Positions 16,454-43,235 of a stretch of 64,000 nucleotides of DNA are shown here, one piece after another. Both the position numbers and the translations under genes were made by a program. The stretch is taken from assembly GCA_965214485.1 (NCBI GenBank), contig CBDCBW010000015.1, positions 338,000 through 401,999 of the forward strand, in the 5' to 3' direction. Each line of letters starts with the position of its first letter. Position 1 is the first letter of the stretch. The stretch is from Rhodothermales bacterium. GTDB taxonomy: Bacteria; Bacteroidota; Rhodothermia; Rhodothermales; JANQRZ01. The notes under the pieces were generated by a model. That model did not search any database and had not been told where the DNA came from. It saw nothing but the letters and a program-made list of their open reading frames with translations.

Positions 16454-16927
16454 CTACGCCTCCAAGAGTTCTTCGGGGGTGCATAGGATGGGCGGTTCGC
16501 ATCCACTTGAACGGCACACCCACTCTATCTTGTTTCGCATCGCGGCGTTGGCGATGTGCTTGCAGTTCCACGTCAACAAATACTCCATGCCGTGGATGGC
16601 AGCTGTAGCGATGTGGACCGCATCCAGGGCCGCTTTTTGCGGAAGAGGCCCTTCGCGGAGCAGGCGTTCAGCGATCTCTTCTACGTCTTCGGCGATGTCG
16701 AGGAGCGGCAGAAGAGAGAGTGCCGTAAGCCTAGACTCGGCTGCTGTCTTGTCTCCCCGACCGGCCTCATCGAGAACTGGTTTTGAGGTGTAAAGCGTGA
16801 AGTCCCCACGCCTGTCATGCCACCACCGGTCCGTGATCTGCTGATGGGCCGCGACAATGAGGTCCGCACTGGGTCGAGACGTGAGGTAGCCAACGACACT
16901 GGTTTCGATGTAGACCTTCGGCTTCAT
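16454..16927 (-). CDS. PIN-domain protein (VapC-like toxin)
   Basis: 157 aa from ATG 16927. MKPKVYIETSVVGYL has a conserved acidic residue; DAVHIATAAIHGMEYLLTWNCKHI is typical of PIN domains. Confidence 0.7.
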   Translation of the reverse strand: MKPKVYIETSVVGYLTSRPSADLIVAAHQQITDRWWHDRRGDFTLYTSKPVLDEAGRGDKTAAESRLTALSLLPLLDIAEDVEEIAERLLREGPLPQKAALDAVHIATAAIHGMEYLLTWNCKHIANAAMRNKIEWVCRSSGCEPPILCTPEELLEA

Positions 16928-17001
16928 AAACCAAAGGTACTCAGGTTCAGGGCGCGCGGTCTCGGTAGCTTGCGGCCCCTCGCCTCCGACACCCGCCCCC
17001 G

Positions 17002-18639
17002 ATGCGCCTCCTCCTTGTCTCTCTCCTTCTGCTCCCCTTCCTTCTGCTCCCCGTCGCCGTGTCCGCCGTCGCACAGCCCGCGCCTGCCGATCCCGTCGGC
17101 CCTGCCGGCTACCGCCCCGGCGTCGACGCCGAGCGCTACACGTTCCGGCTCGGCCTCACCGACGCCTCGGACCGGATCGAGGGCGAGGCCGACGTCGCGG
17201 TCCGCTTCACCGCCGCCGGCCTCCCCGCGCTCGTGCTCGACCTCGTCGGGCCGAGGGCGGACGGCACCGGGATGACCGTCGGGCGCGTCACCGAGGACGG
17301 CCGGCCGGTGGCCTTCGAGCAGACCGACACCGCGCTGCGGATTCCGCTCGCCACGCCGCCGGCACCCGACGAGCGGCGGACCTACACCGTGGGCTACGCC
17401 GGGGTCCCCGCCGACGGCCTCGTCATCGCCACGAATCGCCACGGCGACCGGACGTTCTTCGGCGACAACTGGCCCAACCGCGCCCGCCACTGGCTCCCGA
17501 CGGTCGATCACCCCTCGGACAAGGCCCTCATCGAGTGGGCCGTCACCGCGCCCGACCACTACCAGGTCGTGGCGAACGGGCGGCTGCGCGAAGAGACCGA
17601 CGTGGGCGGCGGCCTCCGCCTGACGCGGTGGGCCTCGACCGCCCCGCTCGCCACCAAGATCGCGGTCGTCGGCGTGGCCCGATTCGCCGTGGACTACGTC
17701 GACGAGGTCGGCGGGGTGCCCGTCGCGTCGTGGGTCTATCCGCAGGACCGCGAGGCCGGGTTCTTCGACTACGCCCGCGCCGAGCGGGTGCTGGAGGTGT
17801 TCACCCTGCTCCTCGGCCCCTACCCCTTCGCCAAGCTCGCGAACGTGCAGTCCACGACGCGCTACGGCGGGATGGAGAACGCGAGCGCGATCTTCTACGA
17901 CGAGAACTCGGTCACCGGCACGCGCTCGTCGGAGAGCCTGATCGCGCACGAGGTGGCGCACCAGTGGTTCGGCAACGCCGTCACCGAGCGCGACTGGCCG
18001 CACCTGTGGCTGAGCGAGGGCTTCGCGACCTACCTCACCCACGTCTACCACGAGTTCACCTACGGCCGCGACGCCCTCGAAGCCCGCCTCCGCGCCGACC
18101 GCGACCGCGTCGTCGCCTTTGCCCAGGCGCAGCCGACCCGCCCGCTCGTGGACACGACCTACGCCGCCCCGACCGACCTCCTCAACCCGAACTCGTACCA
18201 GAAGGGCGGGTGGGTGCTCCACCTGCTCCGCCGGCATGTCGGCGACGAGGCGTTCTTCGACGGGCTGCGCGCGTTCTACGACCGGCACCGGGGCGAGAAC
18301 GTGACCACCGCCGACTTCCGCCGCATCATGGAGGACGTCTCCGGGCAGGACCTCGGGACCTTCTTCGCGCAGTGGACCGAGCGCCCCGGCGTCCCCCGCC
18401 TCGACGCAACCTGGAGCTGGGGCGACGGCACCCTCAGCCTCGACCTCCGGCAGGGCGGCGAGGTGTGGGCCTTCCCGCTCGACGTCGGGATCGTGACGGC
18501 AGAGGGCGTGCGCGTTGAAACTGTGACGGTAGATGAATTGACGGAGACCGTGGCGATACCGCTCGACGCACCGCCGCAGGACATCGTTCTCGATCCGAAC
18601 GTGAACCTGCTGGCCGCGCTCTCGCTCCGTGCGGAATGA
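17002..18639 (+). CDS. Secreted M1-family zinc metallopeptidase (aminopeptidase N-like)
   Basis: 545 aa. Signal peptide, GMEN exopeptidase motif (YGGMENAS), HEVAHQWFG zinc motif and WLSEGFATY. Confidence 0.9.
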   Translation: MRLLLVSLLLLPFLLLPVAVSAVAQPAPADPVGPAGYRPGVDAERYTFRLGLTDASDRIEGEADVAVRFTAAGLPALVLDLVGPRADGTGMTVGRVTEDGRPVAFEQTDTALRIPLATPPAPDERRTYTVGYAGVPADGLVIATNRHGDRTFFGDNWPNRARHWLPTVDHPSDKALIEWAVTAPDHYQVVANGRLREETDVGGGLRLTRWASTAPLATKIAVVGVARFAVDYVDEVGGVPVASWVYPQDREAGFFDYARAERVLEVFTLLLGPYPFAKLANVQSTTRYGGMENASAIFYDENSVTGTRSSESLIAHEVAHQWFGNAVTERDWPHLWLSEGFATYLTHVYHEFTYGRDALEARLRADRDRVVAFAQAQPTRPLVDTTYAAPTDLLNPNSYQKGGWVLHLLRRHVGDEAFFDGLRAFYDRHRGENVTTADFRRIMEDVSGQDLGTFFAQWTERPGVPRLDATWSWGDGTLSLDLRQGGEVWAFPLDVGIVTAEGVRVETVTVDELTETVAIPLDAPPQDIVLDPNVNLLAALSLRAE

Positions 18640-18748
18640 CGTTCATGGCAAAGCCCGGACCCGCTGACGCAAACGCGCAGCAGGACCTGGCTTTGCCGTT
18701 CGGGTAGGGGCAGGTTTCAAACCCGCCCCTACAACGCTTCCATCAACC

Positions 18749-18905
18749 TCACGCGATCAGCGGGGCGATCACGAGCGCGACGACCGCGATGAGCTTGAGC
18801 AGACGCCCACTCGGACCCAAGGCGTCCTTGCCGTAGGCGACACCGTCGAAGGGCACACGCCGCCCTCGATGCGCCCCGCGTTGTCCCACACGCCGCCGGA
18901 AACCC
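18749..18905 (-). pseudogene. Degenerate remnant of the hppA 3' end (copy 1, internally deleted)
   Basis: TCACGCGATCAGCGGGGCGATCACGAG... aligns with the real hppA end at 29898 onward. It is followed by a similar GTAGGGGC...GCCCCTAC hairpin as the real gene. Confidence 0.75.
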
Positions 18906-18966
18906 CCGGCACTCCCCCTCGTTGATCGCTATCAAAGTGATAGCACCCACCATCCGGTTTTCCCTT

Positions 18967-19203
18967 ATGGCTCAACTCCTGATCCGTGGTCTTGAAGACG
19001 CGACGGTCGAGCGCCTCAAGGCCCGGGCACGGGCGCGCAACCGCTCGCTCCAAGCCGAGACCCGCCGCATCCTCGAACAGGCCGCCGCCACCGACCCCGA
19101 CAGCTTTTGGTCGCAGGCTGATGCGTTCCGCCGTCATCTCGCAGCGAAGGGCGGTCCCGTGACAGACACCACGGCCGACCTCCGAGAGGACCGAGACCGG
19201 TGA
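18967..19203 (+). CDS. RHH-type antitoxin (FitA/VapB-like)
   Basis: 78 aa from ATG 18967 (MAQLLIRGLEDATVERLKARARARNRSLQAE). Its stop overlaps the start of the PIN gene. Confidence 0.8.
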   Translation: MAQLLIRGLEDATVERLKARARARNRSLQAETRRILEQAAATDPDSFWSQADAFRRHLAAKGGPVTDTTADLREDRDR

Positions 19204-19622
19204 GGCCGCTCATCGTCGATGCGAGCGTGGCCGCGAAGTGGCTCTTCGAGGAAGAGCACAGCGAGGCCGCCGGTCGGCTCCGGGCCTACGCCTTCGACCT
19301 CCATGCTCCCGACTTCGTGCGGGTCGAGTTGGTGAACGTCGTCGCCAAGCACGAGCGGCGGGGTGCCCTCACCACGGCTGAGGCCCTGGAGGCGTCCCGC
19401 CTCATTCTCGCGCTCCCGCTCCAGCTTCATGCGTGGCAGGACCTGCTCGGCCCGGCCTTCGACCTAGCCCTGGAGACGAAACGGAGCGTGTATGACTGCC
19501 TTTACCTCGTCCTCGCCGTTGCTCTCGATGGGACCCTCGTGACCGCGGACCGGAAGTTTCACGCCACGCTCCCTGGAGCTCATGCTGCCCGCCTGCTCTG
19601 GGTCGAGGACATTCCGGCCTGA
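19200..19622 (+). CDS. vapC: PIN-domain toxin VapC
   Basis: 140 aa. GTG start overlaps the antitoxin stop (GTGA). Motifs LIVDASVAAKW and YDCLYLVLA...LVTADRKF. Confidence 0.85.
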   Translation: MRPLIVDASVAAKWLFEEEHSEAAGRLRAYAFDLHAPDFVRVELVNVVAKHERRGALTTAEALEASRLILALPLQLHAWQDLLGPAFDLALETKRSVYDCLYLVLAVALDGTLVTADRKFHATLPGAHAARLLWVEDIPA

Positions 19623-19744
19623 CGCACACGCTGCGCCCGCAGCAGAAAGCCCGGCCCCGCCAACGCAACTGCGCAGCAGGACCGGGCTTTGCCGTTCAGG
19701 TAGGGGCGAGTTTCAAACCTGCCCCTACAACGCTTCCATCAACC

Positions 19745-19995
19745 TCACGCGATCAGCGGGGCGATGACGAGGGCCACCACCGCGATCAGCTTCACCAGGA
19801 TGTTCAGGCTCGGGCCCGAGGTGTCCTTGAGCGGGTCGCCCACGGTGTCGCCGACGACGGCGGCCTTGTGGACCTCGGTGCCCTTGCCGTAGGTGACCCC
19901 GCCGAAGGTCACGCCGCCCTCGATGCGCTTCTTGGCGTTGTCCCACGCACCCCCGGTGTTCGACTGGAAGATCGCGGGGCACGCCCGAGACCGCC
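19745..19995 (-). pseudogene. Remnant of the hppA 3' end (copy 2, about the last 78 codons)
   Basis: Track ORF 19745..20014 translates to ...[69 protein letters not shown]. This is near-identical to the HppA C-terminus encoded at 29898-30130. There is no N-terminal body. Confidence 0.9.
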
Positions 19996-20015
19996 CGCCC
20001 CGATGAGATAGCAAG

Positions 20016-20049
20016 AGGCCCTGCCGACGGCGAAGAGTCGGCAGGGCCT
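20016..20049 (-). terminator. Hairpin terminator downstream of the subtilase-like gene
   Basis: AGGCCCTGCCGAC-n8-GTCGGCAGGGCCT. The same hairpin recurs at 24725-24758. Confidence 0.7.
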
Positions 20050-20091
20050 CTGAGTCAGGACACCTGCTGGGTCAGAGCATCTGCTCCCGCC

Positions 20092-22551
20092 TTAGCGCAG
20101 CAGCGTCACCCGCTCTGTGCCGACGAAGTCCCCCGCCGTGAGGCGCACGACGTAGACCCCGCTCGGGAGGCTGCGCCCGTCGAAGCGCGCCGTGTGATGA
20201 CCGGCCTCGTGTGGTCCCTCGGCGAGGCGGGCGACCTCGCGCCCGACGAGGTCGTAGACGGTGAGCCGGACCTCGGCGGCCTCGGGCAGCGCAAAGCGGA
20301 CCGTGGCTCCATCGCGGAACGGGTTCGGGGCTGCGCCCGAGAGCGCGTACGCTGCTGGCAGTGACGGTTCGGCACGCGCCGCCGCCGTCTCTCCAGTTCC
20401 AATATCCTCTCCGTTTATGCCAGTGCCTTTGCCGCTGACGAGGTAGATGGTCCGTGTGGCTGAGGCTGTCGTGCCGTCGCTGTCGGTGACCCTGACGCGG
20501 AGTCGGAAGGTGGGGGGGCTGGTCTCCGAGATGCGGAAGGAGAGTTGGGAGCCGGTACCGGCCGCCCTCCAGATTCCACATATAGGATTGTCTGGGCCTC
20601 GGCTGGCTATTGCACCGCTCCCGAGGTGCTGAAGTCTCGTGGGCAGGCGATGGGGCAGCGGAGTCGCCGCTGATGCCGCAGCCTCCACGCCTGTGTCCCC
20701 GCTGCGGCAATAGGGGTTGCTGCCGGTGCAATCATCGTCGTCGCACTCGTAGAGATATTCCCAGATGTAATCGCGGTAAGACGGTTCCCCTCCACTAAGG
20801 CGAGCCGTCCAGGTGTAATGCTGGCTTCTGACGACCTCGGCCGGGCCTTCGATACGCACGCTCAACGGCGGTCGCGGGGTTACCATCGTGTAGGCCACCT
20901 CGTAGGTCTGGGGGGACCGGGGGAGGTCTCCATACTCTATGATCCGCCCCAGGGCGTCGTAGAAAGTAGCCCTCCAGTAGTAGCCCTCAACGTTGAACCC
21001 TGAAGCGTCCACCGAGGTGACGCTGAGCGACTTGAGGAGAAAGTCGTTCACGCTCTCGTAATGGTTGTCCTCGGCAACGATTCGCGTATCCGTCCCGTCG
21101 CTCTCCGCCCAGCGGGCCCACACGTCGGGGGCGCTCGACGGGGAGATGTCGCCGAAGTTGACGCGTCCGGTAAAGCGCTTGAGTTGCCCGGTCGCTCTGG
21201 CGAACGCACGCCCTTGCGGAGTGAAGTTGCCCCAGTTCGTGAGCGTGACCGTGCGCGAGTCCGCCGTCTGCGTGCTGACGTTCGAGACACCCGTAGCCGT
21301 TTTGTGCCGGAACACGTTGGCTTTGGCGTAGCGGAGCGCGCGTCCGGCGTCCACGACTCCGAAGCCCGTGGCGTCGTCGAAGCCCGCCGTGCCTACGTCG
21401 CGGGCCGTCCGCTGCAAGACCTGCTCAATGTCCTCGCCGGTGAGGTGAAAGCGCCTGGCTTTGATGAGCGAGGCGACACCCGCCGTGATGGAGGCCGCCG
21501 CGACGGTCCCGCCGAAGTCCGTCCGGTAAGCCGAGTTGGATTCGCCCGACGTAGCGACGACGTCCTTCGCCATCGCCGCCACATCCACGTAGGGCCGCCG
21601 CACTGTCTGATCCCAGACAACAGGTTGGTTGGCTTGGTTTAGCTCTACACCGCCGACGGTGACGACGTAGCGGTCGCTGAGCGCGGGAGCGTAGCTGATC
21701 CCGTCGGAGTACGGGCCGTGGTCCCCCATCGGCGCGACGACTACGTCCCCGTCCACGGTCACGGCGCTGGCCGTCTCAACCTGGAAGGCGCGGAATGGTG
21801 TCGGTGGGCTGGAACAGCCGCTCCCGAAGCAGAGGTCTCGGAAGAGCGTGCCGATGGATTCGCTAAGGCTGTTGACCGCGGGCTGAGGTGGATTCGTAGT
21901 GGGGAACTGCTGTGGGAGAGGGTTGGGCGGTGGGAAGTTCTCGGCGGCTATACCGGAGACGGCTCCTTGGCTGAGGTAGTCGTTGAAGAGGCCCGATGGG
22001 ATACTGTAGGTGATAAGGTGTACCTCCACACTGTGATCCTGTCGGGCCTGCGCCATGCGCTCGGCAAGCACCCCCTCACGGAAGCGAAACGTCTCGGAGC
22101 CAAGGTTGAGGAGGTGGCACTCGTCGTCGCCTGAGCTGCACCCCCCTGACTCCAGCAGGCTATACGTCCGTATGCCAGTCTGCCGAGCGACGCCCGCCAT
22201 ACCGAGGGCATTGTTGGTACGGGCTCCGGCGATGCCGGCTGCTTCGGTGGCGTAGCCGAGGCCGGGACGGTCCACGCCGTTGTCTCCGGAAGGCGGTAAC
22301 GCGCGCCCGTCGAGGTCTTCGTGCCCATAGCGGATGCCGGTGAGCGACTGTACGCCGATGCGGGCGTAGGGCGAGCCTTGCGTCACCGCCCACGCCTCGT
22401 CTACGTGGTGGACGTCGAAGAGGTAGTCCTGATCGCCGGAGATGACAAAGGGATCGTTCGTCTGGCCGTAAGCGACGCCCGTCGAGAGACAGAGCGCGAG
22501 AAGGAGGAGAACCGCGTGGCGGTAGCTGGAGTATGGATGTGATCGTGTCAT
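20092..22551 (-). CDS. Subtilase-fold (S8-like) secreted protein lacking the catalytic triad, with a Cys-containing Ig/PKD-like region and a T9SS C-terminal sorting domain
   Basis: 819 aa from ATG 22551 (MTRSHPYSSYRHAVLLLLALCLSTGVAYGQ). Aligns with paralog 24801..27344, but D->Q (IGVQSLTG vs AIIDSGVD), H->Y (GYATEAAG vs GHGTPVAG) and S->V (GGTVAAAS vs GGTSNASP). C-terminus ...VYVVRLTAGDFVGTERVTLLR is a T9SS CTD. Confidence 0.85.
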   Translation of the reverse strand: MTRSHPYSSYRHAVLLLLALCLSTGVAYGQTNDPFVISGDQDYLFDVHHVDEAWAVTQGSPYARIGVQSLTGIRYGHEDLDGRALPPSGDNGVDRPGLGYATEAAGIAGARTNNALGMAGVARQTGIRTYSLLESGGCSSGDDECHLLNLGSETFRFREGVLAERMAQARQDHSVEVHLITYSIPSGLFNDYLSQGAVSGIAAENFPPPNPLPQQFPTTNPPQPAVNSLSESIGTLFRDLCFGSGCSSPPTPFRAFQVETASAVTVDGDVVVAPMGDHGPYSDGISYAPALSDRYVVTVGGVELNQANQPVVWDQTVRRPYVDVAAMAKDVVATSGESNSAYRTDFGGTVAAASITAGVASLIKARRFHLTGEDIEQVLQRTARDVGTAGFDDATGFGVVDAGRALRYAKANVFRHKTATGVSNVSTQTADSRTVTLTNWGNFTPQGRAFARATGQLKRFTGRVNFGDISPSSAPDVWARWAESDGTDTRIVAEDNHYESVNDFLLKSLSVTSVDASGFNVEGYYWRATFYDALGRIIEYGDLPRSPQTYEVAYTMVTPRPPLSVRIEGPAEVVRSQHYTWTARLSGGEPSYRDYIWEYLYECDDDDCTGSNPYCRSGDTGVEAAASAATPLPHRLPTRLQHLGSGAIASRGPDNPICGIWRAAGTGSQLSFRISETSPPTFRLRVRVTDSDGTTASATRTIYLVSGKGTGINGEDIGTGETAAARAEPSLPAAYALSGAAPNPFRDGATVRFALPEAAEVRLTVYDLVGREVARLAEGPHEAGHHTARFDGRSLPSGVYVVRLTAGDFVGTERVTLLR

Positions 22552-22729
22552 GGTGGTACCTGGTCTGGAATAGCAGGGGACATCGTGGCATGTGGCCTCC
22601 GCTCCCACTGAGGCCGGGGCCGCCGCGGCAACGGCGTGCTCCGGTCGGGATCGGGGGCCTCGTTGGTTCAGGCGTGCGTGGGTCTCGTCATAGGCAACGA
22701 GTGGTTGGTTGGAAAGAGATGAAGCCGAC

Positions 22730-23800
22730 TCAGTAACCGAGACGGCCTCCGCTGGGCGGAGGGAGAGGCGGGAACACCGGTACCGAGTCCGGCAGCGCGG
22801 GCCACAGCACGCGCTCCTGCCCCGAGCCGAGGTCGTAGGCGAAGGGGATCCAGCGCGCTCCCGGTCCCCGGTCCACGTCCCGGATGAAGAAGAACGAGGA
22901 GCCGTCGGCGGCCCAGCGCGGAACGTTGCCGCCGAACTCCGTGATGCGCCGCACATCGCCCCCGTCGCTGTTCATCAGGAACAACTGGTCGGCGTTCTCG
23001 ACCTCGCGCTGGAGCACGACCGTCTCGCTGACCGGACTCGGCACAGCAAAAATGGTGTAGATGGAGTCGCTCGGCACGTTGGTGATGTAGCGCCACGCGC
23101 CGGTCGCGAGGTCGTAGCGCGCCCAGTTGCCGTCGTACTCCTCGAAGAGCGGGTCCTCCCGGTAGACAAACTTTTGTCCGGTAACGTAAGTCTCATTTCC
23201 ACCGAGATACGTTGCCTGCATCAGTTCGAGGAGCGGCCCCTCGATCTCACCCGTCTCGGTGTCGAGGATGTAGAGGCCCCGCGCGTAGGCCTGCTGATAG
23301 CCTGTCGAAGCCACTGAGACCAGCAGCCGTCGCCCGTCGGCAAACCACCCGCCCCAGGCAGCGTTCTCGAAGTTGAAGAACAGGCTGTCCGCTCCCGACC
23401 ACTGCCGCGTCTGGCGCGTCTCCAGGTCCAGCGTGTAGAGGTAGACGTTCAGCCCAACCACAACGTTGACGGCGAGGCGTTCCTCACTCGGGTGCCAGAA
23501 GACGCTGCCGGTGTTGACGCCGATGAACTCGGGGTCGCTGCCGTCGGCGTCGACGATCCAGAGCTGCCTGCGCGGGCTGAGTTGCTCGTCCGGCGTGCGC
23601 TGCCGCACGAGGGCGATGCGGCTGCCGTCGGGACTCGGCGCGAACTGCGTCAAGTGCTCGGTGCCAGGGAGGGCGTCGCCGCCGTAGTCGCCCGGCGCGA
23701 AGAGCGGCTCCTCCTCCGGCGGCGGAGCCACGGGCGAGGAGCATCCAGCCACTAGCAGGGGCACAGTGATGAAGCAAAGGAGAGACGGAAGAAGACGCAT
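22730..23800 (-). CDS. PD40/TolB-like beta-propeller lipoprotein
   Basis: 356 aa from ATG 23800 (MRLLPSLLCFITVPLLVAGCSS lipobox). Repeated SPDG/ADG-type blades (SPDGSRIALV, WAADGSSFFF). Confidence 0.75.
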   Translation of the reverse strand: MRLLPSLLCFITVPLLVAGCSSPVAPPPEEEPLFAPGDYGGDALPGTEHLTQFAPSPDGSRIALVRQRTPDEQLSPRRQLWIVDADGSDPEFIGVNTGSVFWHPSEERLAVNVVVGLNVYLYTLDLETRQTRQWSGADSLFFNFENAAWGGWFADGRRLLVSVASTGYQQAYARGLYILDTETGEIEGPLLELMQATYLGGNETYVTGQKFVYREDPLFEEYDGNWARYDLATGAWRYITNVPSDSIYTIFAVPSPVSETVVLQREVENADQLFLMNSDGGDVRRITEFGGNVPRWAADGSSFFFIRDVDRGPGARWIPFAYDLGSGQERVLWPALPDSVPVFPPLPPPSGGRLGY

Positions 23801-23909
23801 ATGGATCAGCGGGGGGGTAGGCGGAGCACACAACTTACCCATGTTCTACAGCGAAGTCCACCGAAAAACTTGGCATTTCCGGGCACCCTTTCCCACCGAA
23901 AGTCCGTGA
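23801..23909 (-). promoter_or_regulatory. Conserved intergenic region between the AraC-like and propeller genes (duplicate at 28417..28530)
   Basis: Nearly identical to 28417-28530 by eye. On the minus strand it contains TGGGTAAGTTGTGTG about 25 nt before the ATG, resembling a Bacteroidota -7 element (TAnnTTTG). Confidence 0.45.
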
Positions 23910-24263
23910 CTAACGCCCCTGCACCCGCCGTCGGTACGCCCGCATCGAGCACCCCACCTCCCGCTTGAAGGCCCGCGCCCCGCTGTCGGCTCGCGCCCAC
24001 CCCACCGCTCGACATACTTCGGCGATCCGCAGGTTCGTCTTGGCCAGTAACCGCTTCGCTTGCTTGACGCGTACCCGCCGGAGGTGGTCGATCAGCGCCA
24101 CCCCGGCCTCCTGTCGGAAGACCCGCTGCAGCGTCCCGACCGGTACCCCGAACGCCTCCGCTATGCCCTCCGGCCCCATGATCCGAGCGTAGTGGCGCTC
24201 TACGTAGACTTGAACTTCTCGAATATCGACGGACACGGCAACCAGGGTTTCTCCAAGAGGCAA
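23910..24263 (-). CDS. AraC-family HTH-only transcriptional regulator
   Basis: 117 aa. Two HTH units (GPEGIAEAFGVPVGTLQRVFRQ, IAEVCRAVGWARADSGARAFKREVG). No ligand-binding domain. Paralog at 28531..28884. Confidence 0.8.
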   Translation of the reverse strand: MPLGETLVAVSVDIREVQVYVERHYARIMGPEGIAEAFGVPVGTLQRVFRQEAGVALIDHLRRVRVKQAKRLLAKTNLRIAEVCRAVGWARADSGARAFKREVGCSMRAYRRRVQGR

Positions 24264-24453
24264 CCCTCATAGACACCCGAAGCCTGCAGACATAACCCTA
24301 TTAACGCAGATGTACAAAGCCCGGCCCTGCCGACGCGACTGCGCAGCAGGACCGGTCTTTTCCAGAAGACGGAGGACAGTAGACGAGAAACGGTGGTGCA
24401 GAGTCCGGCGACCGAGGTAGCTTTCCCAGCTTCGCCTGTCCTCTGTCCTCTGG

Positions 24454-24705
24454 TCAGGCGATCAGCGGCGCAATGACGAGCGCGACGACGGCGATGAGCT
24501 TGACCAAGATGTTCAGGCTCGGACCCGACGTGTCCTTGAGCGGGTCGCCCACGGCGAAGGCCGACGACGGCGGCTTTCGCTGATCGGAGATCAGCGTGGA
24601 CCTCGGTACCCTTGCCGTAGGTCACGCCGCCTTCGATGCGCCCCGCGTTGTCCCACGCGCCGCCCGCGTTGCTCTGGAAGATCGCGGGGCACGCCAGAGA
24701 CCGCC
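24454..24705 (-). pseudogene. Remnant of the hppA 3' end (copy 3, with indels/frameshift)
   Basis: TCAGGCGATCAGCGGCGCAATGACGAG...GGTCGCCCACGG aligns with the hppA end. A foreign insert lies around 24555-24600. It has the same upstream junction (CTGGAAGATCGCGGGGCACGCC) as copy 2. Confidence 0.8.
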
Positions 24706-24724
24706 CAAGCCGACGAATTGGAAA

Positions 24725-24758
24725 AGGCCCTGCCGACTTTTCGCTGTCGGCAGGGCCT
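24725..24758 (-). terminator. Hairpin terminator downstream of the S8 peptidase gene
   Basis: AGGCCCTGCCGAC-n8-GTCGGCAGGGCCT, a duplicate of 20016-20049. Confidence 0.7.
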
Positions 24759-24800
24759 CTGGGTCAGGACACCTGATGGGTCAGAGCATCTGCTCCCGCC

Positions 24801-27344
24801 TTAGCGCAGCAGCGTCACGCGCGAGGTCCCGACGAAGTCTCCGGCGGTGAGGCGCACGACGTAAACCCCGCTCGGGAGGCTCCGCCCGTCGAACCGCGCC
24901 GTGTGCCACCCGGCTTCGCGTGGTCCCTCGGCCAAGTGGGCGACCTCGCGCCCGACGAGGTCGTAGACGGTGAGCGTCACTTCGGCGGGCTCAGGAAGCG
25001 CAAAGCGGACCGTAGCTTCATCGCGGAAGGGGTTCGGGGCTGCGCCGTCGAGCGCGTAAGCCTCCGGGATTGAGGTCCCGCTCCGAGCCTCGGTTCCGTT
25101 TGCAACGGTTGCCCCACCGGAGCCGCCCCTCCCGCCGCTTACGAGATAGATCGTCTTGATGACGGTCTTTGTCGTGCCGCCAGCATCGGTAACGGTGAGG
25201 CGGAGCTTGAACGTATACACCTCGCTGCTGGGAACACGAAACGAGAGAGCCTGCCCACTTCCTGCGAACTTCCAGGTGCCGCAGTCAGGGACGTCTGGCC
25301 CTCGGCTGGAGATAACCGAAGCCGGGAGCCTCTCGGCGACGGAGGACTCCAGCGCCGGGGTCTTACCCCCGCCCGCATCGCGGCAGTAAGGGTTGCTCCC
25401 AGTGCATGAGTCGATGTCGCAATCGTAGTAGTACTCCCAGTGATAGGAGTAGGGCGCGGCCCCGCCGCTAGCGATGCCCGTCCAGGTGTAGCGCCGCCCA
25501 GCGGTGACCTCGGCCGGGCCGGAGATGCTCGCACTCAGCGGAGCCAGCCGCCCTACGACGGTAAAACCGAAGTCAACATCATCTGGAGCCGACGGATAGT
25601 ATGCGTTAATCTGTCGGCCTTGACTGTCACTCGTGACCCAGTAGACGTAGGTCTCGTAGTCGAACCCGGCAGTCGTAACGTTGGTGATGTTGATCCACGG
25701 TTCTTGGTAGAGAGGGTTGCTGTCATCCCACCCCTTAAGACGGCTCATCTTCGCCCAGACCTGGGGCGGCGTCTGGTACGCCCTCGAGAACGAGACGTGA
25801 CCGCTAACGCGGTACTGCCGCACGCCGTAGTATACACCGTTAGCGAGCGGACCACCCCCTGCGGCCCGGTAGAACGTGTGGGAGTGATTCCCCCATGTCT
25901 GCTCTACGGTTCCATCTGTTCGGGTGAAGTGCGTCACCGTGTTGGGAGCTTGGACGAATCGGAGCGCCTCGTAGGCGTTGACCCGGCCATCGCCGTACTC
26001 CGGGTGAAAGTCCTGTCCACCCATCGCCTGCACGTTGTCTGCCGTGCGACGGATGATCTCGCGGAGATCGTCGCCGGTGAGACCGAGGTTCCGGTCCCGG
26101 CTCTCGGAGAGCAGAAGTCCGGCGACGCCTGCCGTCATCGGAGACGCATTGGACGTGCCGCCGAACGACTCCACACCTCCGCCCATCCTGGTGGACGAAT
26201 ATCCTGTACCCGGCGCGACGACGTCGAGCGAGTTGCCATAAGCGGAGAAATCTGTTTTCCGGTCGTCTCGGTTACTTGCGCCGACGGCCATGACCATGTG
26301 GTAGCTGGCCGGTGGTTCGACGTAATAATCGTCATCGAGCCCGTTGTTGCCCGCCGACGCGACAATGAGGACCCCGCTCCGCCACGCGTTCGTGATCGGC
26401 TCTACAATCATGGAGCGGGGGTTACCATTGTAATCATAGGGGTCAGGGAAGATCGGATCGTCAGAGTCCGGGAAGGAGAGGCTTATGTTGATGATGTCAG
26501 CCCCCTCTTGGCGAGCGTAGTCGAAGCCTTGTGCCACATCGCTGAAAAGGTGCTGCCCGCTACAAGGACCTACGCGCACCGGCATCAGTTGGACATCCCA
26601 CATCACGCCGGCTACGTCGCGGTCGTTGTCGGTGATCGCCCCAACCACACCGGCGACGGGGGTGCCGTGACCTTTGCAGTCGTCTGGGTCATCATCGTCT
26701 TGGAAGAAATCGTAGCCCTGGATGACGCGGCTGCGGTCGCCGGGGTCGAGGTCGGGGTGCTCGTAGTCCACGCCGCTGTCGATGATGGCGACGACGACGT
26801 CGCTTCGCCCGGTCTGAATGTCCCACGCTTGCGGAGCGTGGATGTCGTTCCCCGGCGTCTGGAAGTTGTACAACCCCCACTGGTTGTCCGCTTCAAACTC
26901 GGGGTCGTCGGGGAAAGTCGCATTGGAATACATGTAGTAGTCCGGCGACGCAGCGAGAACCTCAGGTGCCGCCATCAGCTTTTCAGCGAGCGCTTCGATG
27001 TCAGTGCCAGCCTCCACTTCCAGGCGATACCACCGCGAGAGGTCTATGAGGTCTACCGTCTCCTCACGCTTCGAGGTGAAGAGGGTATCCTGCGGCATGA
27101 AGTCGCGGAACAGCTTGGTACCTGCGGTGAAGCGCGCCTGCCCAAGCGCCTGCCGAGCGGCGGGTACTGAGGAGAGGTCGGCGGCAGTGAGCGATGGCTT
27201 GACCTGGGGGAGCGCCTCCGGGGCGAGCTTCACGAGGACCACGCCGGGGGCGTAGCGCTCGCTGGAGGGCGTGGGTTGGGCGTAGGCGCTGGCTCCGAGG
27301 ATCATCAGGAGGCACAGCACCGTTGGAAGGGTCGTTCTCAACAT
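24801..27344 (-). CDS. Secreted S8 (subtilisin-family) serine peptidase with propeptide-like N-terminus, Cys-containing Ig/PKD-like region and T9SS C-terminal sorting domain
   Basis: 847 aa from ATG 27344 (MLRTTLPTVLCLLMILGASAYAQ). Intact triad motifs AIIDSGVDYEHPDL, GHGTPVAG, SAGNNG and GGTSNASPMTAG. T9SS CTD ...VYVVRLTAGDFVGTSRVTLLR. Confidence 0.9.
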   Translation of the reverse strand: MLRTTLPTVLCLLMILGASAYAQPTPSSERYAPGVVLVKLAPEALPQVKPSLTAADLSSVPAARQALGQARFTAGTKLFRDFMPQDTLFTSKREETVDLIDLSRWYRLEVEAGTDIEALAEKLMAAPEVLAASPDYYMYSNATFPDDPEFEADNQWGLYNFQTPGNDIHAPQAWDIQTGRSDVVVAIIDSGVDYEHPDLDPGDRSRVIQGYDFFQDDDDPDDCKGHGTPVAGVVGAITDNDRDVAGVMWDVQLMPVRVGPCSGQHLFSDVAQGFDYARQEGADIINISLSFPDSDDPIFPDPYDYNGNPRSMIVEPITNAWRSGVLIVASAGNNGLDDDYYVEPPASYHMVMAVGASNRDDRKTDFSAYGNSLDVVAPGTGYSSTRMGGGVESFGGTSNASPMTAGVAGLLLSESRDRNLGLTGDDLREIIRRTADNVQAMGGQDFHPEYGDGRVNAYEALRFVQAPNTVTHFTRTDGTVEQTWGNHSHTFYRAAGGGPLANGVYYGVRQYRVSGHVSFSRAYQTPPQVWAKMSRLKGWDDSNPLYQEPWINITNVTTAGFDYETYVYWVTSDSQGRQINAYYPSAPDDVDFGFTVVGRLAPLSASISGPAEVTAGRRYTWTGIASGGAAPYSYHWEYYYDCDIDSCTGSNPYCRDAGGGKTPALESSVAERLPASVISSRGPDVPDCGTWKFAGSGQALSFRVPSSEVYTFKLRLTVTDAGGTTKTVIKTIYLVSGGRGGSGGATVANGTEARSGTSIPEAYALDGAAPNPFRDEATVRFALPEPAEVTLTVYDLVGREVAHLAEGPREAGWHTARFDGRSLPSGVYVVRLTAGDFVGTSRVTLLR

Positions 27345-27513
27345 GAGTAGGTTTGGGTTGGTAGACCGAAGTCTGCTTGAGAGAGCATGAGACCCCGGCA
27401 GGCGGTGCGGCAGCGCGAGCGGTCCTGGCAGATCAGACTCGCGCAGTGACACCGGGCCTGTCGGGGGTTTTTTGTTGATGCGATAGGTACCTCGGGACCC
27501 GTAGGTGGTACGG

Positions 27514-28416
27514 TCAGAAGGTGAGTTGCTGTCGGTCGGAGCCGTTGGGAGCGATGCTCCAGAGCACCAAGCGGTCCTGTTCCGGCGCGAGCGCTTGGAA
27601 GACGATCCGCTGCCCGTCGGGCGTCCACGCCGGGTACGCCCCCCCACGCGCGAGCCGCACCAAGCGGCGCTGCGCCGAGCCGTCGGCGCGCATCAGCCAG
27701 AGCGCGAGCCGACCGTCGCCCTCCTGCGCCGCCCACGCGATGTGCTCGCCGCCAGGGCTGAGCGCCGGGTCACGGTTGTAGCGGAAGTCGTTGGCGGTGA
27801 GCTGCACGGGGTTCGCTCTGCTCGTGTCCGAGCGCCAGAGCTGGCCGAGGCCGTCGCCCTGTTCGTCCAGGAAGCCGAAGACGATCTCGTCCCCGTCGGG
27901 GAACCAGTCGGCGGGGCTGGCCCCGAAGCCGAACTTGGTGCGCGTGGTGTCGGCCACATTGATGAACCACAGGCCCACCTCTTCTTGGTTGCCCGAGCGT
28001 CCATAGGAGATCGTCTCGCCCGAGGGCGACCAGCGGGGGAAGAAGGCGCTGCCGTGGTCGGTGAGGTAGCGGAAGTCGCTCCCGTCGGGGCGCACCACGG
28101 CGATGCCGCCCGCCTTCACCGCCAGCCGCTCCCCATCGGGACTCCAGTCGGGACTCCACACCCCACCAGACTTCACGAGACTGCGCTCCCCGCTTGCGAG
28201 GTCGAACACGTAGAGGCCCGTCGGGTAGGCCTCCTCGCGCTCCGGCTCCGCTTCGTAGTGCCAGTAGGCGAGGCTCTTCCCGTCGGGGCTGACGGCAGGG
28301 TAAGCGTCTTCGGGAATGATGGGTGGCGCGGGCGTGGGGCCCCCGCCGCTGTCGCAGCCCATCGGGAGTAACAAGGCAGCAGCGACCGCACAGAAAAGAG
28401 CTAGACGAAAACGCAT
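27514..28416 (-). CDS. PD40/TolB-like beta-propeller lipoprotein
   Basis: 300 aa from ATG 28416 (MRFRLALFCAVAAALLLPMGC lipobox). Blades VSPDGKSLAYW, WSPDGERLAV, WSPSGETISY, WFPDGDEIVF, LSPGGEHIAWA and WTPDGQRIVF. Confidence 0.8.
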   Translation of the reverse strand: MRFRLALFCAVAAALLLPMGCDSGGGPTPAPPIIPEDAYPAVSPDGKSLAYWHYEAEPEREEAYPTGLYVFDLASGERSLVKSGGVWSPDWSPDGERLAVKAGGIAVVRPDGSDFRYLTDHGSAFFPRWSPSGETISYGRSGNQEEVGLWFINVADTTRTKFGFGASPADWFPDGDEIVFGFLDEQGDGLGQLWRSDTSRANPVQLTANDFRYNRDPALSPGGEHIAWAAQEGDGRLALWLMRADGSAQRRLVRLARGGAYPAWTPDGQRIVFQALAPEQDRLVLWSIAPNGSDRQQLTF

Positions 28417-28530
28417 ATTGACCGATCGGGGGGGGGTTAGGCGGAGCACACAACTTACCCATGCCCTGCAGCGAAGTCCACCGAAAAAACTTGGCATTTC
28501 CGGGCACCCTTTCCCACCGAAAGACCGTGA

Positions 28531-28884
28531 CTAACGCCCTTGCACCCGCCGTCGGTACGCCCGCATCGAGCATCCCATCTCCCGCTTGAACGCTCGCGTT
28601 CCACTGTCGGCTCGCCTCCACCCGACAGCCCGACACACCTCGGACACCTGCAACTCTGTCTCGGCCAAAAGCTGCTTTGCCCGCTCGACGCGCACCTGCC
28701 GGAGGTAGTCCGTCAGCGCCACCCCAACTTCCCACCGGAAGCTCCTGCGCAGCGTCTCGACCGGCACACCGAATGCTTCGGCGACCGCCTCCGGCCCCGT
28801 GATCCGAGCGTAGCGGCGCTCTACGTAGACTTGAACTTCTCGAATATCGACGGACACGGCAACCAGGGTTTCTCCAAGAGGCAA
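28531..28884 (-). CDS. AraC-family HTH-only transcriptional regulator
   Basis: 117 aa. Close paralog of 23910..24263, with the same first 22 residues (MPLGETLVAVSVDIREVQVYVE). Confidence 0.8.
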   Translation of the reverse strand: MPLGETLVAVSVDIREVQVYVERRYARITGPEAVAEAFGVPVETLRRSFRWEVGVALTDYLRQVRVERAKQLLAETELQVSEVCRAVGWRRADSGTRAFKREMGCSMRAYRRRVQGR

Positions 28885-29020
28885 CCCTCATAGACACCCG
28901 AAGCCTGCAGACATAACCTCAGCGATGCAGATAAAAAAGCCTGGCCCCGCACGTAGCGAGACCGGGCCTCGTCCAGCGAACCGCCCGCCGGGCTCGCGCG
29001 GTGAGCGAGAGGGGCACTCT

Positions 29021-29503
29021 TTACTCCCCCGCCAGGCGCAGCACCTCCCGCACCAGAGCGATGTCCACGCGGAACCCCACCGCTTGAAGCTCCTCGACCA
29101 GCGGCCCTACAGCCTCGACGAGGCCGCTTCGCTTGGCGCGGACGAGGAGGCCGAGTGTGCCGACGGTCCGGACCCCAAGCGCCTCTGCGCACCGCCGGGC
29201 ACCTCGGTCGTCCAGCACGGCCGTAGCTTCCGGGTGCTCCAGCACGTAGGCCAGCACCGCGCTCTCACCGGCCCCTACGTCCCAGGCTGCTATTCGCTGC
29301 GGGACCGGACGCGGCGGCTCGACCTCCAGGGCCGCCGCGTCGAGCCACCGCCGCGCGGGGTCCGCCGGTGGAGCCGCTGCGACCTCTTCGGCCACGGCCG
29401 CCGGGACGACGAGTTGCTCCCCCAGCTCCAGCATTAGATCGGCCCGCCCGATGTGCGCGAGCACGATCAGCGGCGAGGCGTCGGCGACGTAGCGCTCAGC
29501 CAC
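29021..29503 (-). CDS. DUF3368-type PIN-like toxin
   Basis: GTG start at 29503 overlaps the antitoxin stop by 8 nt ([19 protein letters not shown]...). C-terminal [15 protein letters not shown] motif is typical of DUF3368. Confidence 0.7.
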
Positions 29504-29750
29504 CGTCCACCTCGCGCCGCAGCTCCTCCGGTGTCGCCTGGAACGGGGAGACGCCGAAGCGGGCGAGGGAGTGGAGGAACGCGGCACGCGTGAGCCCGGC
29601 TAGCTCGGCGGCTCTCGCCTGCGACAGCCGCCCCTGCCCGTACCACGCCGCCGCCGCTGCGAGCCGCATCTCGGCGGCGAGCTCAGCCGGGCTGCTCCGC
29701 AGCGCGGCAACGGCGTCCTCGGGCAGGTCGATGTGGATGCGGACGGGCAT
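29496..29750 (-). CDS. UPF0175-family antitoxin
   Basis: 84 aa. [11 protein letters not shown]...[35 protein letters not shown] matches the UPF0175 pattern. Confidence 0.7.
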
Positions 29751-29897: not shown

Positions 29898-32012
<2,115 letters not shown>

Positions 32013-41405: not shown

Positions 41406-42259
41406 GAGGCTGACTACGAATGGAGTGTGATGGGACGTTGAGCCCGTCCCCCTCGACCGATCGCACGCATGGCACACAGGCCGTACTCGACAGACCTCAC
41501 CGACGCCCAGTGGGCCATCGTCGCCCCGCTGCTGCCCCCGCCCCGCCCGCGCGGTCGCCGACCGACCGTCGACCGCCGCCGCGTCCTTGACGCCATCTTC
41601 TACCAAGCCAAGAACGCCTGCACATGGCGCGACCTCCCGCGCGACTTCCCCAACCACAAGACGGTCTACGCCTATTTCGAGCGGTGGCGCGACGACGGCA
41701 CCCTCGCCTCGGTCTACGAGGCGCTCCACCGCCGGTGGCGTCGGGAGAACGGGCGCGACGAGGACCCGTCGGCCGGGTCCGTCGACAGCCGGAGCGTCCA
41801 GGCTGCGCCCGAGGCCGCCGAGCGGGGGAAGGACCCGAACAAGAAAGTCGTCGGTCGCAAGCAGCACCTGTGCGTCGACACCGAGGGGCTCCCGATCTCG
41901 GTCAGGGTCACCGTCGCCTCAGCCAACGACAAGGCAGCGGCCTACGACCTCATCGACGCGGCGGCCGAGCGGAGCCCGCGGCTGAAGAAGCTGTGGGCCG
42001 ACGGGGCCTATGTGAGCGGCCCGCTCGCCGACCACGCCGCCGAGAAGGAGATCGACTTCGAAGTCGTGAGCCAGCAGAAGGGGCCGTTCGCGCCGATCCC
42101 GCGCCGGTGGGTCGTCGAGCGGACGTTCGCCTGGCTGAAGCGGTACCGCCGGCTGGTGCTCGACTTCGAGCGTCTCGCGCGGACGGTCGAGGCGTTCATC
42201 TACCTCGCGCTGACGCGGCTCCTGCTCAACCGCTTGGCCCCACGTTCATAGTCAGCCTC
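41406..42259 (+). mobile_element. IS5-family (IS427/IS1031-like) insertion sequence, 854 bp
   Basis: Imperfect terminal inverted repeats GAGGCTGACTACGAATG / CGTTCATAGTCAGCCTC. Flanked by a 3-bp direct repeat TCA (41403-41405 and 42260-42262). Single transposase ORF. Confidence 0.85.
41469..42251 (+). CDS. IS5-family DDE transposase
   Basis: 260 aa. N-terminal DLTDAQWAIVAPLLPP motif, DSRSVQA, LWADGAYVS, and the C-terminal VERTFAWLKRYRRL motif typical of the IS5/IS427 group. Confidence 0.9.
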   Translation: MAHRPYSTDLTDAQWAIVAPLLPPPRPRGRRPTVDRRRVLDAIFYQAKNACTWRDLPRDFPNHKTVYAYFERWRDDGTLASVYEALHRRWRRENGRDEDPSAGSVDSRSVQAAPEAAERGKDPNKKVVGRKQHLCVDTEGLPISVRVTVASANDKAAAYDLIDAAAERSPRLKKLWADGAYVSGPLADHAAEKEIDFEVVSQQKGPFAPIPRRWVVERTFAWLKRYRRLVLDFERLARTVEAFIYLALTRLLLNRLAPRS

Positions 42260-42423
42260 TCAGCGCCTGAACCCATGCCGTCCGAGGTTTCCCCGCGTCG
42301 GGGTTGGGAGCGAATTCCTGGAACTCCCGCGCTCCGACGACGGCGTGAGCGCCGAAGGCGAGGAGGGTGAGGGTACCGGCGATGACGGCGAGGACATTCA
42401 TTCCTCAGTTAAAGGTTTCAAGG

Positions 42424-42553
42424 CCGTATACCAAAGGGCCGCTCACCCACGCGGGGAAAACAGGATGATGGTCGGACGAAGCTGCGGAAGCGGTGGAGTT
42501 CGGACGAGGCAAGACCGTGTAGCCCTTCGTCGGCGTGCAGCGGCGGGTTAGGC
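42424..42553 (-). repeat. attC-like site A1
   Basis: Left box degenerate (GTATACC). Inner arms GGGCCGCTCACCC / GTGCAGCGGCGG. Right box GTTAGGC. Confidence 0.65.
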
Positions 42554-42561
42554 AGCCGTGG

Positions 42562-43179: not shown

Positions 43180-43235
43180 GTCGGTAGGGCCTCGTTTGGT
43201 TATGATACGGTGGAGTTGGCTACGCTGTCACGGGG

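Follow-up and report, generated by a model that had tools for sequence, protein, structure and literature searches.

The 64-kb stretch of DNA analysed here (hereafter the window, in whose numbering all positions are given) comes from a Rhodothermales bacterium (assembly GCA_965214485.1, contig CBDCBW010000015.1, 338,000-401,999) and carries two colinear three-gene modules, each composed of a gene for an AraC-type regulator, a gene for a PD40-type beta-propeller lipoprotein and a gene for a subtilase (peptidase family S8) with a type IX secretion system (T9SS) sorting domain. The subtilase of module 1 has lost the catalytic residues of its family and is referred to as the pseudo-subtilase; that of module 2 retains them. 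An earlier note made from the sequence had placed the modules at 20016-24335 and 24725-28955; the open reading frames (ORFs) were placed correctly, but the repeat unit reaches further and includes the last 76 codons of the neighbouring gene hppA. All ORFs of the two modules lie on the minus strand:

23910..24263, minus strand: AraC-1, 117 residues, consisting only of a helix-turn-helix (HTH) domain; PF12833 HTH_18, 70 bits, residues 34-113
22730..23842 (ORF; likely ATG at 23800), minus strand: propeller-1, defining the prop1 type; TolB-like PD40 lipoprotein, lipobox LVAGC, signal peptide MRLLPSLLCFITVPLLVAGC
20092..22551, minus strand: pseudo-subtilase, 819 residues; S8-fold domain and T9SS type A sorting domain
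28531..28884, minus strand: AraC-2, 117 residues, HTH only; PF12833 HTH_18, 71 bits, residues 35-113
27514..28497 (ORF; likely start at 28416, MRFRL...), minus strand: propeller-2, defining the prop2 type; PF07676 PD40, 55 bits, lipobox LLLPMGC
24801..27344, minus strand: active T9SS subtilase, 847 residues; signal peptide, prodomain, S8 domain, C-terminal extension and type A sorting domain

Pfam models identified PD40 repeats in both propellers and Peptidase_S8 together with Por_Secre_tail in both subtilases. The propeller and subtilase genes are separated by 178 nt (22730 to 22551) in module 1 and by 169 nt (27514 to 27344) in module 2, and the corresponding spacing in other genomes is 130-220 nt. 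A scan for sigma-70 promoters found none, and a terminator scan returned no more candidates than shuffled controls. The G+C content at third codon positions was 0.74-0.86 for the cassette genes (20092-28884) vs 0.94-0.98 for the flanking hppA (29898-32012) and M1 peptidase (17002-18639) genes; the cassettes are compositionally distinct from the core genes on either side.

The pseudo-subtilase and its family

In the pseudo-subtilase, Ser69, Tyr100, Asp277 and Val350 replace the catalytic Asp, the catalytic His, the oxyanion Asn and the catalytic Ser, respectively. BLASTP alignment of the two window subtilases (E = 3e-108) placed GYAT opposite GHGT, PMGDHG opposite SAGNNG and GGTVAAAS opposite GGTSNASP, and MAFFT alignments of the family matched the Asp of the triad with Ser69 (IGVQ[S]LTG). 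The earlier note had listed Q, Y and V together with PMGDHG at these positions; Y, D and V are indeed the aligned residues, but the Q is one residue off, since it is Ser69 that faces the Asp. The same four substitutions were obtained when the family profile was aligned to mirolase (8ehe, E = 2e-23) and thermitase (1thm) from the PDB, mirolase being the best of the 124 solved subtilase sequences matched by the profile. PF00082 scored 36.4 bits in the pseudo-subtilase (cut-off 21.8), with only the C-terminal half of the model aligned. The subtilase of module 2 scored 171.7 bits with the same model and, in agreement with the earlier description, its motifs IIDSG, GHGT, SAGNNG and GTSNASP keep the D, H, N and S intact. 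The NCBIfam CspC and CspBA models (NF040808, NF040809) matched only this active paralogue, with 18-25 bits vs cut-offs of 675 and 1250.

The pseudo-subtilase is also without a prodomain, a point absent from the earlier note: its signal peptide runs directly into QTNDPF, which aligns with the N-terminus of mature thermitase, and at the corresponding position the active paralogue has approximately 150 extra residues with a weak Fervidolysin_NPro-like match. Because a protein incapable of self-cleavage could not remove a prodomain, the loss of the triad and the loss of the prodomain would fit together. Downstream, the pseudo-subtilase contains an insertion of approximately 70 residues with an LCxGxGCxSPP motif, followed by a C-terminal extension. 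The sorting-domain model TIGR04183 (cut-off 23) scored 33.7 bits in the pseudo-subtilase and 32.9 bits in the active subtilase, and PF18962 (cut-off 27) scored 28.4 bits in the full-length pseudo-subtilase and, for the active protein, 26.2 bits at full length and 28.1 bits for the C-terminal part. The pseudo-subtilase is thus an intact 819-residue ORF with a signal peptide and a sorting domain, as first described, and by their sorting domains both proteins are predicted T9SS type A cargo destined for export. No T9SS core gene was identified within the 64-kb window.

A full HMMER scan of 1.84 billion representatives revealed the family to which the pseudo-subtilase belongs, with 17 representatives at E<1e-30, each giving one continuous match from residue ~10; a word-index protein search with the catalytically inactive N-terminal domain had returned two relatives only. 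The triad-less family comprises about 20 clusters at 50% identity. In all aligned members the signal peptide is followed directly by QTNDPL, i.e. the start of mature thermitase, and a prodomain is absent. The column of the catalytic Asp holds Ser, except that the most divergent members have Ala or Gly, that of the His holds Tyr, Phe, Val, Ile or Leu, that of the oxyanion Asn holds Asp with two exceptions, and that of the Ser holds Ala, Val, Gln or His. Motifs specific to the family are YLFDVH, LCxGxGCxSPPxP, VVVAPAGD and YVDVAA, and in most members a T9SS sorting domain forms the C-terminus. At 71% identity, P0001 from the metagenome-assembled genome (MAG) GCA_038232935.1 is the closest relative, and all four substitutions are present in it. 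A scan of genome contigs found two true relatives, one in Roseithermus and one on a MAG contig, and three other matches that were generic S8 proteins. A metagenome scan, which returned mostly generic subtilases, added the pseudo-subtilase loci L011, L012 and L013 (our locus numbers) and the loci L015, L016, L020, L046 and L053, in which a prop2-type propeller accompanies an S8 gene. A search of 5.8 billion proteins did not return the window's own pseudo-subtilase, the best match being 71% identical; the collection does include both of its neighbours in the window, propeller-1 (P0282) and the active subtilase (P0010).

The ratio of non-synonymous to synonymous substitution rates (dN/dS, NG86 method) between the pseudo-subtilases of the window and of L001 was 0.24 overall and 0.12 for codons 260-400, and an independent pair (L092 vs L097) gave 0.22 overall and 0.096 for the pseudo-catalytic domain. 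The pseudo-subtilase is therefore maintained by purifying selection and is not decaying, and its inactive domain is the most constrained part of the protein. The dN/dS check that the earlier note had proposed has thus been carried out without any sign of relaxed selection, and, with the substitutions retained in relatives, its view of the gene as encoding a secreted pseudo-protease, and not a decaying copy, is upheld.

Broken copies were seen on two short metagenome or MAG contigs, where assembly error is possible: in L005 (318-2029) the pseudo-subtilase is cut off after approximately 178 residues and a prop2-type propeller comes directly after it, and in L002 (534-2590) the gene is missing its N-terminal third and is frameshifted.

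Propellers, AraC genes and the conserved pair

In all 12 pseudo-subtilase loci with upstream sequence (the window, L001, L002, L004/L009, L005, L011, L012, L013, L091/L092, L094, L095 and L097), a prop1-type propeller gene lies directly upstream on the same strand, its product being 41-84% identical to propeller-1. Propellers of the prop2 type are found upstream of S8 genes that have kept the catalytic Asp and His in L003, L020, L046 and L053, and also upstream of two diverged, truncated S8 ORFs without the Asp (L015 and L016). Propeller-1 and propeller-2 are only 30% identical in amino acid sequence; propeller-1 is 53% identical to its Roseithermus orthologue and propeller-2 59% identical to the L003 propeller that precedes an active S8 gene. 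The pairing of prop1-type propellers with pseudo-subtilases is strong, although not absolute.

What accompanies the pair is far less constant. The active subtilase beside the pseudo-subtilase is not conserved, its place being taken elsewhere by an M36 metalloprotease, an M14 peptidase or no protease, and the idea of a pseudo-protease working beside an active enzyme does not describe a conserved arrangement. Likewise, of the two couplings that had been proposed for each subtilase, the one with its own propeller stands at 12 of the 12 loci, but the one with a small AraC regulator fails: an AraC gene upstream of a propeller and pseudo-subtilase was seen only in the window and, as a 60-residue remnant, in L001. 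The AraC gene is a lineage-specific addition and not a core part of the module. In the L001 remnant (171-353) an in-frame deletion fuses the FRxEVG and FKREVG motifs. HTH_18 fills the 117-residue AraC proteins of the window, and the NCBIfam SoxS, RamA and MarA models align with them end to end, below their equivalog cut-offs; AraC-1 and AraC-2, which are 81% identical, are predicted to be regulators of MarA/SoxS size that consist of a DNA-binding domain only.

Relatives of propeller-1 form about 50 clusters at 90% identity, with identities of 37-100% to it, and its dN/dS relative to the L001 propeller is 0.19. An AlphaFold2 model of propeller-1 built from 43 sequences is all-beta, with a mean predicted local distance difference test score (pLDDT) of 87.3 and a predicted TM-score (pTM) of 0.82. 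Foldseek searches with this model returned TolB propellers as the best matches (E ~1e-11, query TM-score (TMq) 0.50-0.57), followed by S9 peptidases, tricorn and the trilobed protease. The TolB family model scored 43 and 93 bits (93 for propeller-2) vs a cut-off of 343. In its fold propeller-1 resembles TolB, whose propeller offers a binding platform for proteins and peptides; unlike TolB (~400 residues), however, propeller-1 (356-residue model) apparently lacks the N-terminal domain and has only a signal helix before the beta-strands, and it is predicted to be lipid-anchored and is encoded beside protease-like genes rather than beside tol-pal genes. Lipoboxes are visible in the propellers as LVAGC, PMGC, SGC and AGC.

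Several loci deviate from the simple pair. Tandem pairs of prop1-type propellers lie upstream of a single pseudo-subtilase in L094 (3-2118) and L095 (6183-8415). In L093 (8663-11080) a prop1-type pair is without any subtilase, and 1.7 kb downstream of it there is an IS200-type transposase gene. In L096 (2032-4559), from a close relative, a prop2-type propeller (55% identical) precedes a prop1-type propeller (81-83% identical), neither of them has a subtilase, and an E1 dehydrogenase gene comes next; this layout suggests a deletion by recombination between cassette ends.

Cassette ends and the array at the 3' end of hppA

The two modules were compared by global alignment in 100-nt windows. Nucleotide identity is 74-94% over the AraC gene, the 72 nt upstream of it, the AraC-propeller spacer and the lipoprotein signal peptide, falls to approximately 40% over the mature propellers and catalytic domains, which is noise at 65% G+C, and then rises to 57-65% over the C-terminal half of the S8 genes and to 84-88% over the sorting domain and the non-coding DNA downstream. 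The colinearity of the modules, with similar AraC genes, flanks and subtilase C-terminal halves around diverged cores, is thus as the earlier note had it. The intergenic region and propeller signal peptide are identical at 135 of 175 nt, and the stretch of 76-78 nt that follows each S8 gene at 66 of 78 nt. Direct repeats of 300 nt lie at 20037-20336/24746-25045 (89%, spacing 4709 nt) and 23864-24163/28485-28784 (81%, spacing 4621 nt).

The C-terminal and N-terminal parts of the subtilases differ in their patterns of identity. Over the C-terminal 260 residues the window pair is 64% identical (sorting domain 89%) and the L003 pair 89% identical (sorting domain 94%), vs about 53% between genomes. 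The N-terminal domains behave in the opposite way, with identities of 31-35% within a genome (31% for the catalytic domains of the two window subtilases) vs 43-53% between orthologues (43% between the pseudo-subtilase and its Roseithermus orthologue, 49-53% between the active subtilase and its L003 orthologue P0011). The synonymous divergence (dS) between AraC-1 and AraC-2 is likewise uneven, at 0 in the first 30 codons, 0.82 in the middle and 0.36 in the last 26 codons. The extension of end similarity into non-coding DNA, the uneven dS of the AraC genes and the opposed C- and N-terminal patterns together show that the ends have been exchanged more than once. By these comparisons the cores of the two modules belong to old, separate lineages and are not a recent duplicate pair, and only the cassette ends have been homogenised, by recombination within the genome.

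Both modules belong to an array in which the 3' end of hppA recurs. Its features, running from hppA toward lower positions, are:

29898..32012, minus strand: functional hppA, H+-translocating pyrophosphatase, 704 residues; its last 76 codons are the repeated sequence
29021..29750, minus strand: UPF0175 antitoxin and DUF3368 (PIN-like) cassette, located after the end of functional hppA and before AraC-2; PF03683 84.7 bits, PF11848 52.1 bits
24725..24760, minus strand: hairpin directly downstream of the active S8 gene, AGAGGCCCTGCCGAC...GTCGGCAGGGCCT; aligned with the hairpin at 20014-20051
24454..24716, minus strand: partial hppA copy (hppA'), codons 629-704 with indels; tblastn matches to 629-678 and 673-704; repeat families D4 and D8
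24316..24363, minus strand: hairpin copy as found after the older hppA ends, AAAGCCCGG...CCGGGCTTT; repeat family D7, with copies at 18650, 19646 and 24316
20014..20051, minus strand: hairpin directly downstream of the pseudo-subtilase gene, identified by alignment with its active-S8 counterpart
19745..20013, minus strand: near-intact hppA', codons 629-704; tblastn 97% amino acid identity over 76 residues; repeat family D3, 94% over 229 nt
19646..19728, minus strand: two hairpins after the near-intact hppA', GTAGGGGC...GCCCCTAC and AAAGCCCGG...CCGGGCTTT; repeat families D6 and D7
18922..19622, plus strand: FitA-like ribbon-helix-helix (RHH) antitoxin and PIN toxin, between the hppA' copies at 19745-20013 and ~18752-18901; PF22513 49.9 bits, PF01850 45.6 bits
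18650..18901, minus strand: most degenerate hppA' with both hairpins; tblastn 42% over residues 631-704; repeat families D6, D7 and D11; hairpin at 18704-18732
17002..18639, convergent: M1 aminopeptidase gene, abutting the most degenerate hppA' copy

The order from hppA is therefore hppA, UPF0175/DUF3368, module 2, hppA', module 1, hppA', FitA/PIN, degenerate hppA' and M1, such that four copies of the hppA 3' end with its hairpins (18650-20013, 24316-24716, 29898-30128) bound two protease-type and two toxin-antitoxin cassettes. Together, the modules and the two PIN-type toxin-antitoxin cassettes make up an array that has accreted at the hppA 3' end. Residue 629 of hppA is the common starting point of every hppA' copy, in the window as well as in L003. 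Between the near-intact hppA' and the functional end there are 14 nucleotide differences, 11 in synonymous codons and three in two amino-acid-changing codons; this mostly synonymous divergence suggests that both versions evolved inside working hppA genes, as would be the case if an arriving element carried a gene end of its own. A shorter-looped version of the GTAGGGGC...GCCCCTAC hairpin follows the functional hppA stop codon. We considered whether this hairpin is of the repetitive extragenic palindromic (REP) kind; a pattern search gave two copies, both inside hppA' units.

Comparable arrays occur elsewhere. The metagenome contig L003, from a relative, has the layout of the window array and carries, in order, a propeller, an active S8, an H_PPase fragment, a second propeller, a second active S8, a second H_PPase fragment, a DUF433/DUF5615 pair and an M1 peptidase, the fragments being recognised by the Pfam H_PPase model. 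In L092 (9248-9553, 13612-13866 and 15217 onward; the same in L091) it is the 5' end of ileS that is repeated, at 88-92% identity: the repeats span ~85 codons plus ~80 nt upstream, sit ahead of an intact ileS-lspA and enclose one cassette of a prop1-type propeller and pseudo-subtilase and one MNT/HEPN toxin-antitoxin cassette. After each L092 repeat comes a small opposite-strand gene of CarboxypepD_reg-like type, and the longer of these resembles a lipoprotein gene. In Roseithermus sacchariphilus (L009 1-10923; CP030158, ~4.42-4.43 Mb) three units lie beside gyrA: one is a T9SS protein, one pairs a propeller with an M36 T9SS metalloprotease that is broken into several ORFs, and one pairs a propeller with a pseudo-subtilase; each unit is followed by an opposite-strand Uma2-family gene of 158-159 residues, and the M36 protease and the pseudo-subtilase have a common sorting-domain tail.

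The pattern resembles serial integration at a single attachment site and may have arisen in that way, or alternatively by repeated homologous recombination. In tycheposon islands, integrative elements accrete in tandem at one attachment site (bioRxiv 10.1101/2020.12.28.424599). The hppA array is similar in consisting of serial cargo cassettes, with a partial target-gene copy at the boundary of each and the most degraded copy farthest from the intact gene. In contrast to tycheposons, the targets are the ends of protein-coding genes (hppA 3', ileS 5') and not tRNAs, and no integrase or replication module was found in or near the arrays examined.

Possible roles and precedents

The closest precedent is found in Tannerella forsythia, which secretes six T9SS KLIKK peptidases of different classes with near-identical sorting domains (PMC4404884; PMC9890683, sections 2.1, 2.12). 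Each KLIKK peptidase gene is preceded by a lipoprotein gene whose product, a potempin, binds and inhibits the peptidase on the outer membrane, and potempins are much closer to one another in the signal peptide than in the mature protein (PMC4404884; PMC9890683). The loci described here share with this system the arrays of T9SS peptidase-type genes with unrelated catalytic domains and near-identical sorting domains (identity of 89% for the window pair and 94% for the L003 pair vs 31-35% for the catalytic domains), and the lipoprotein gene directly upstream on the same strand, both in the two modules and at the 12 pseudo-subtilase loci. As with potempins, the propeller signal peptides are more alike than the mature propellers, and the best match of the pseudo-subtilase family among solved structures is a KLIKK subtilase, mirolase. 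The differences are equally clear: potempin genes overlap or lie within 5 bp of the peptidase start, unlike the more widely spaced propeller genes; the window sorting domains end in VTLLR and not in KLIKK; one partner is catalytically inactive; and the hosts are environmental Rhodothermales-like bacteria. In architecture the window modules thus appear close to the KLIKK/potempin system without being members of it. The earlier statement that the module is not a described system is correct for the module itself, which was not found in the literature searched, but it overlooked this close precedent (PMC4404884, PMC9890683).

We place high confidence in the descriptive account, i.e. the anatomy of the modules, the family, the selection acting on it, the synteny and the array. 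The account as a whole, in which the window holds two cassettes of one conserved two-gene unit whose products would form a cognate complex at the outer membrane, we regard as probable. The unit would consist of a lipid-anchored, TolB-like PD40 propeller followed by a T9SS-exported protein of subtilase fold; by analogy with potempins, the propeller and the protein encoded downstream would meet at the outer membrane and bind one another. In the case of the active subtilase, complex formation would serve to guard the protease or to hold it in position. For the inactive pair, the subtilase scaffold would have been kept as a non-catalytic binding module, such that the partnership with the propeller, and not proteolysis, would be what selection maintains. 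This mechanism, drawn from analogy, is put forward tentatively, at close to even odds. A binding module is favoured over a relic inhibitor-target pair because the pairing has outlived catalysis and because the inactive domain is the most constrained part of the protein.

Several observations weigh against this account. The propeller-subtilase complex is a prediction, and an AlphaFold2 model of the inactive catalytic domain from a 10-sequence family alignment was poor (pLDDT 41) and was not used. The propeller and subtilase genes are spaced apart and do not overlap, so that their co-transcription is presumed. The propellers are proteins of 300-356 residues with a beta-propeller fold, vs the potempin beta-barrels (OB or eight-stranded) of 98-132 residues, and if a propeller were only a protease inhibitor, its pairing should not outlive the loss of catalysis. 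Prop1-type propellers occur without any S8 gene in L093 and L096, and the pseudo-subtilase genes of L002, L005 and L097 are truncated or frameshifted; the family is dispensable in some lineages. Finally, no recombinase or integrase gene is present at 16.4-32 kb of the window, nor was one called in L003, L091/L092 or L009; the only transposase-type genes of the window belong to insertion sequence (IS) elements at 41-47 kb.

A first alternative is that each module encodes a protease or effector together with an inhibitor or immunity lipoprotein, in the manner of potempins or polymorphic toxins, where the propeller would block the active site and shield the envelope of the producer, and the inactive pair would be an orphaned relic, retained because it is still of use for immunity or as a decoy. 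Such a system would account for the lipoprotein gene directly upstream of each T9SS protease-like gene, for arrays that mix catalytic classes and in which trafficking domains are homogenised and heads variable (cf. PMC9890683), and for the toxin-antitoxin cassettes within the same arrays. A relic, however, is not expected to show what is seen here, where the pseudo-subtilase itself, and not just the propeller, is under strong purifying selection across an old family, and the gene spacing of 130-220 nt is unlike that of potempins. To our knowledge, moreover, no protease inhibitor with a beta-propeller fold has been described. We consider this explanation unlikely, though worth keeping in view.

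A bolder extension of the binding-module account is comparably doubtful. Here the propeller and pseudo-subtilase would form a dedicated surface receptor or adhesion complex of Rhodothermales-like Bacteroidota, with the prodomain-free scaffold as the ligand-binding subunit held by the TolB-like lipoprotein, and the pair, together with the toxin-antitoxin cassettes, would be carried as cargo by an as yet unrecognised integrative system, mobilised in trans, which would target ends of housekeeping genes (hppA 3', ileS 5') and rebuild them with its own copy.

Less probable still is a two-component machine for extracellular peptide processing or capture, in which the propeller would gate or bind the substrate as in S9 peptidases and tricorn and the inactive version would be a receptor feeding uptake. 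The Foldseek matches that follow TolB (propellers of S9 peptidases, tricorn and the trilobed protease), the Pfam matches to Tricorn_N and DPPIV_N, and the M14 or M36 peptidase adjoining the pair at some loci all speak for it, but structural likeness at this level (TM 0.4-0.57, 12-20% identity) is a general feature of PD40 propellers, transporter genes show no consistent linkage, and the lipoprotein localisation is predicted only.

The history implied by the title of the earlier note is a recent tandem duplication in situ of one module, followed by triad loss and drift in one subtilase. Colinear modules with a period of 4.6-4.7 kb and ends 74-94% identical, and an hppA' fragment included in the repeat unit, are what such an event would leave, but the cores are at the level of nucleotide noise and 30-31% identical as proteins, for each core a closer orthologue exists in a different genome, and the four substitutions and the prodomain loss are common to the ~20 clusters at 50% identity, with dN/dS values of 0.10-0.24. 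The identities of 31-71% also exclude the possibility that the 'orthologues' are recent horizontal copies of the window gene. A recent duplication is therefore highly improbable, and the claim that a duplicate then lost its D, H and S has to be given up. Just as improbable is a neo-enzyme with a new catalytic set (Ser69, His77-Glu78-Asp79, Glu103, Asp277) on the subtilase scaffold, since, although Ser69 is invariant and Asp277 nearly so, both at former catalytic positions, and purifying selection is strongest around residues 260-400, the Ser221 position has no conserved nucleophile (A, V or H), the His64 position holds variable hydrophobic residues, and HEDL is kept in active relatives too (mirolase) and is hence structural.

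Inactivated proteases of this general kind have been described before. CspC and CspA of Clostridioides difficile are subtilase-fold proteins with mutated triads that serve in non-catalytic signalling or binding and are encoded beside the active CspB (PMC7200643, PMC6636752, PMC12880746). The pseudo-subtilase family resembles them in its fold, in the loss of the triad and in being kept under selection; unlike it, the Csp proteins are spore proteins of Firmicutes, are not secreted by a T9SS and have no propeller partner, and the family in turn has no conserved adjacency to an active subtilase. Inactivated protease homologues are also already recognised among T9SS cargo, in the NCBIfam family NF052323 (T9SS-dependent M6-like inactivated metalloprotease); this family is of a different fold and clan, and the likeness lies in the sorting domain only (23 bits vs a cut-off of 600). 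Inactive subtilases, an inactivated T9SS metalloprotease and arrays of lipoprotein and T9SS-protease genes were each known before. In the literature searched we found no description of a conserved, prodomain-less, T9SS-exported family of pseudo-subtilases, of its near-obligate pairing with a TolB-like propeller lipoprotein, of a propeller-lipoprotein/T9SS-subtilase operon, or of such pairs as cassettes between rebuilt housekeeping-gene ends.

Besides Csp, the single well-studied case, the family would be a second family of bacterial subtilase pseudoenzymes and the first to be exported by a T9SS, with purifying selection, coherent prodomain loss and an obligate gene partner as its signature. 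The logic of arrays combining a lipoprotein with a T9SS protease, described as unique to Tannerella forsythia, is also present in free-living Rhodothermales-like bacteria with another lipoprotein fold, which suggests that such arrays are a more general way of organising secreted proteases. The rebuilt housekeeping-gene ends around the cassettes point to a process of cassette accretion in the Rhodothermales-like group, and the presence of the pair in the cultured Roseithermus sacchariphilus MEBiC09517 makes the hypothesis directly testable.

Two further features of the window were observed. A PIN-domain ORF at 16454-17074 (minus strand) overlaps the start region of the M1 gene, bringing the number of PIN-type genes to three in 13 kb. 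In addition, the region 41469-54569, of lower G+C content (0.56-0.65), encodes an IS4/5-type DDE transposase, an rve-type IS transposase, an N6/N4 DNA methylase, an Mrr-like endonuclease and an EVE-HNH protein, and is a separate mobile or defence island, of restriction-modification character, unlinked to the array.

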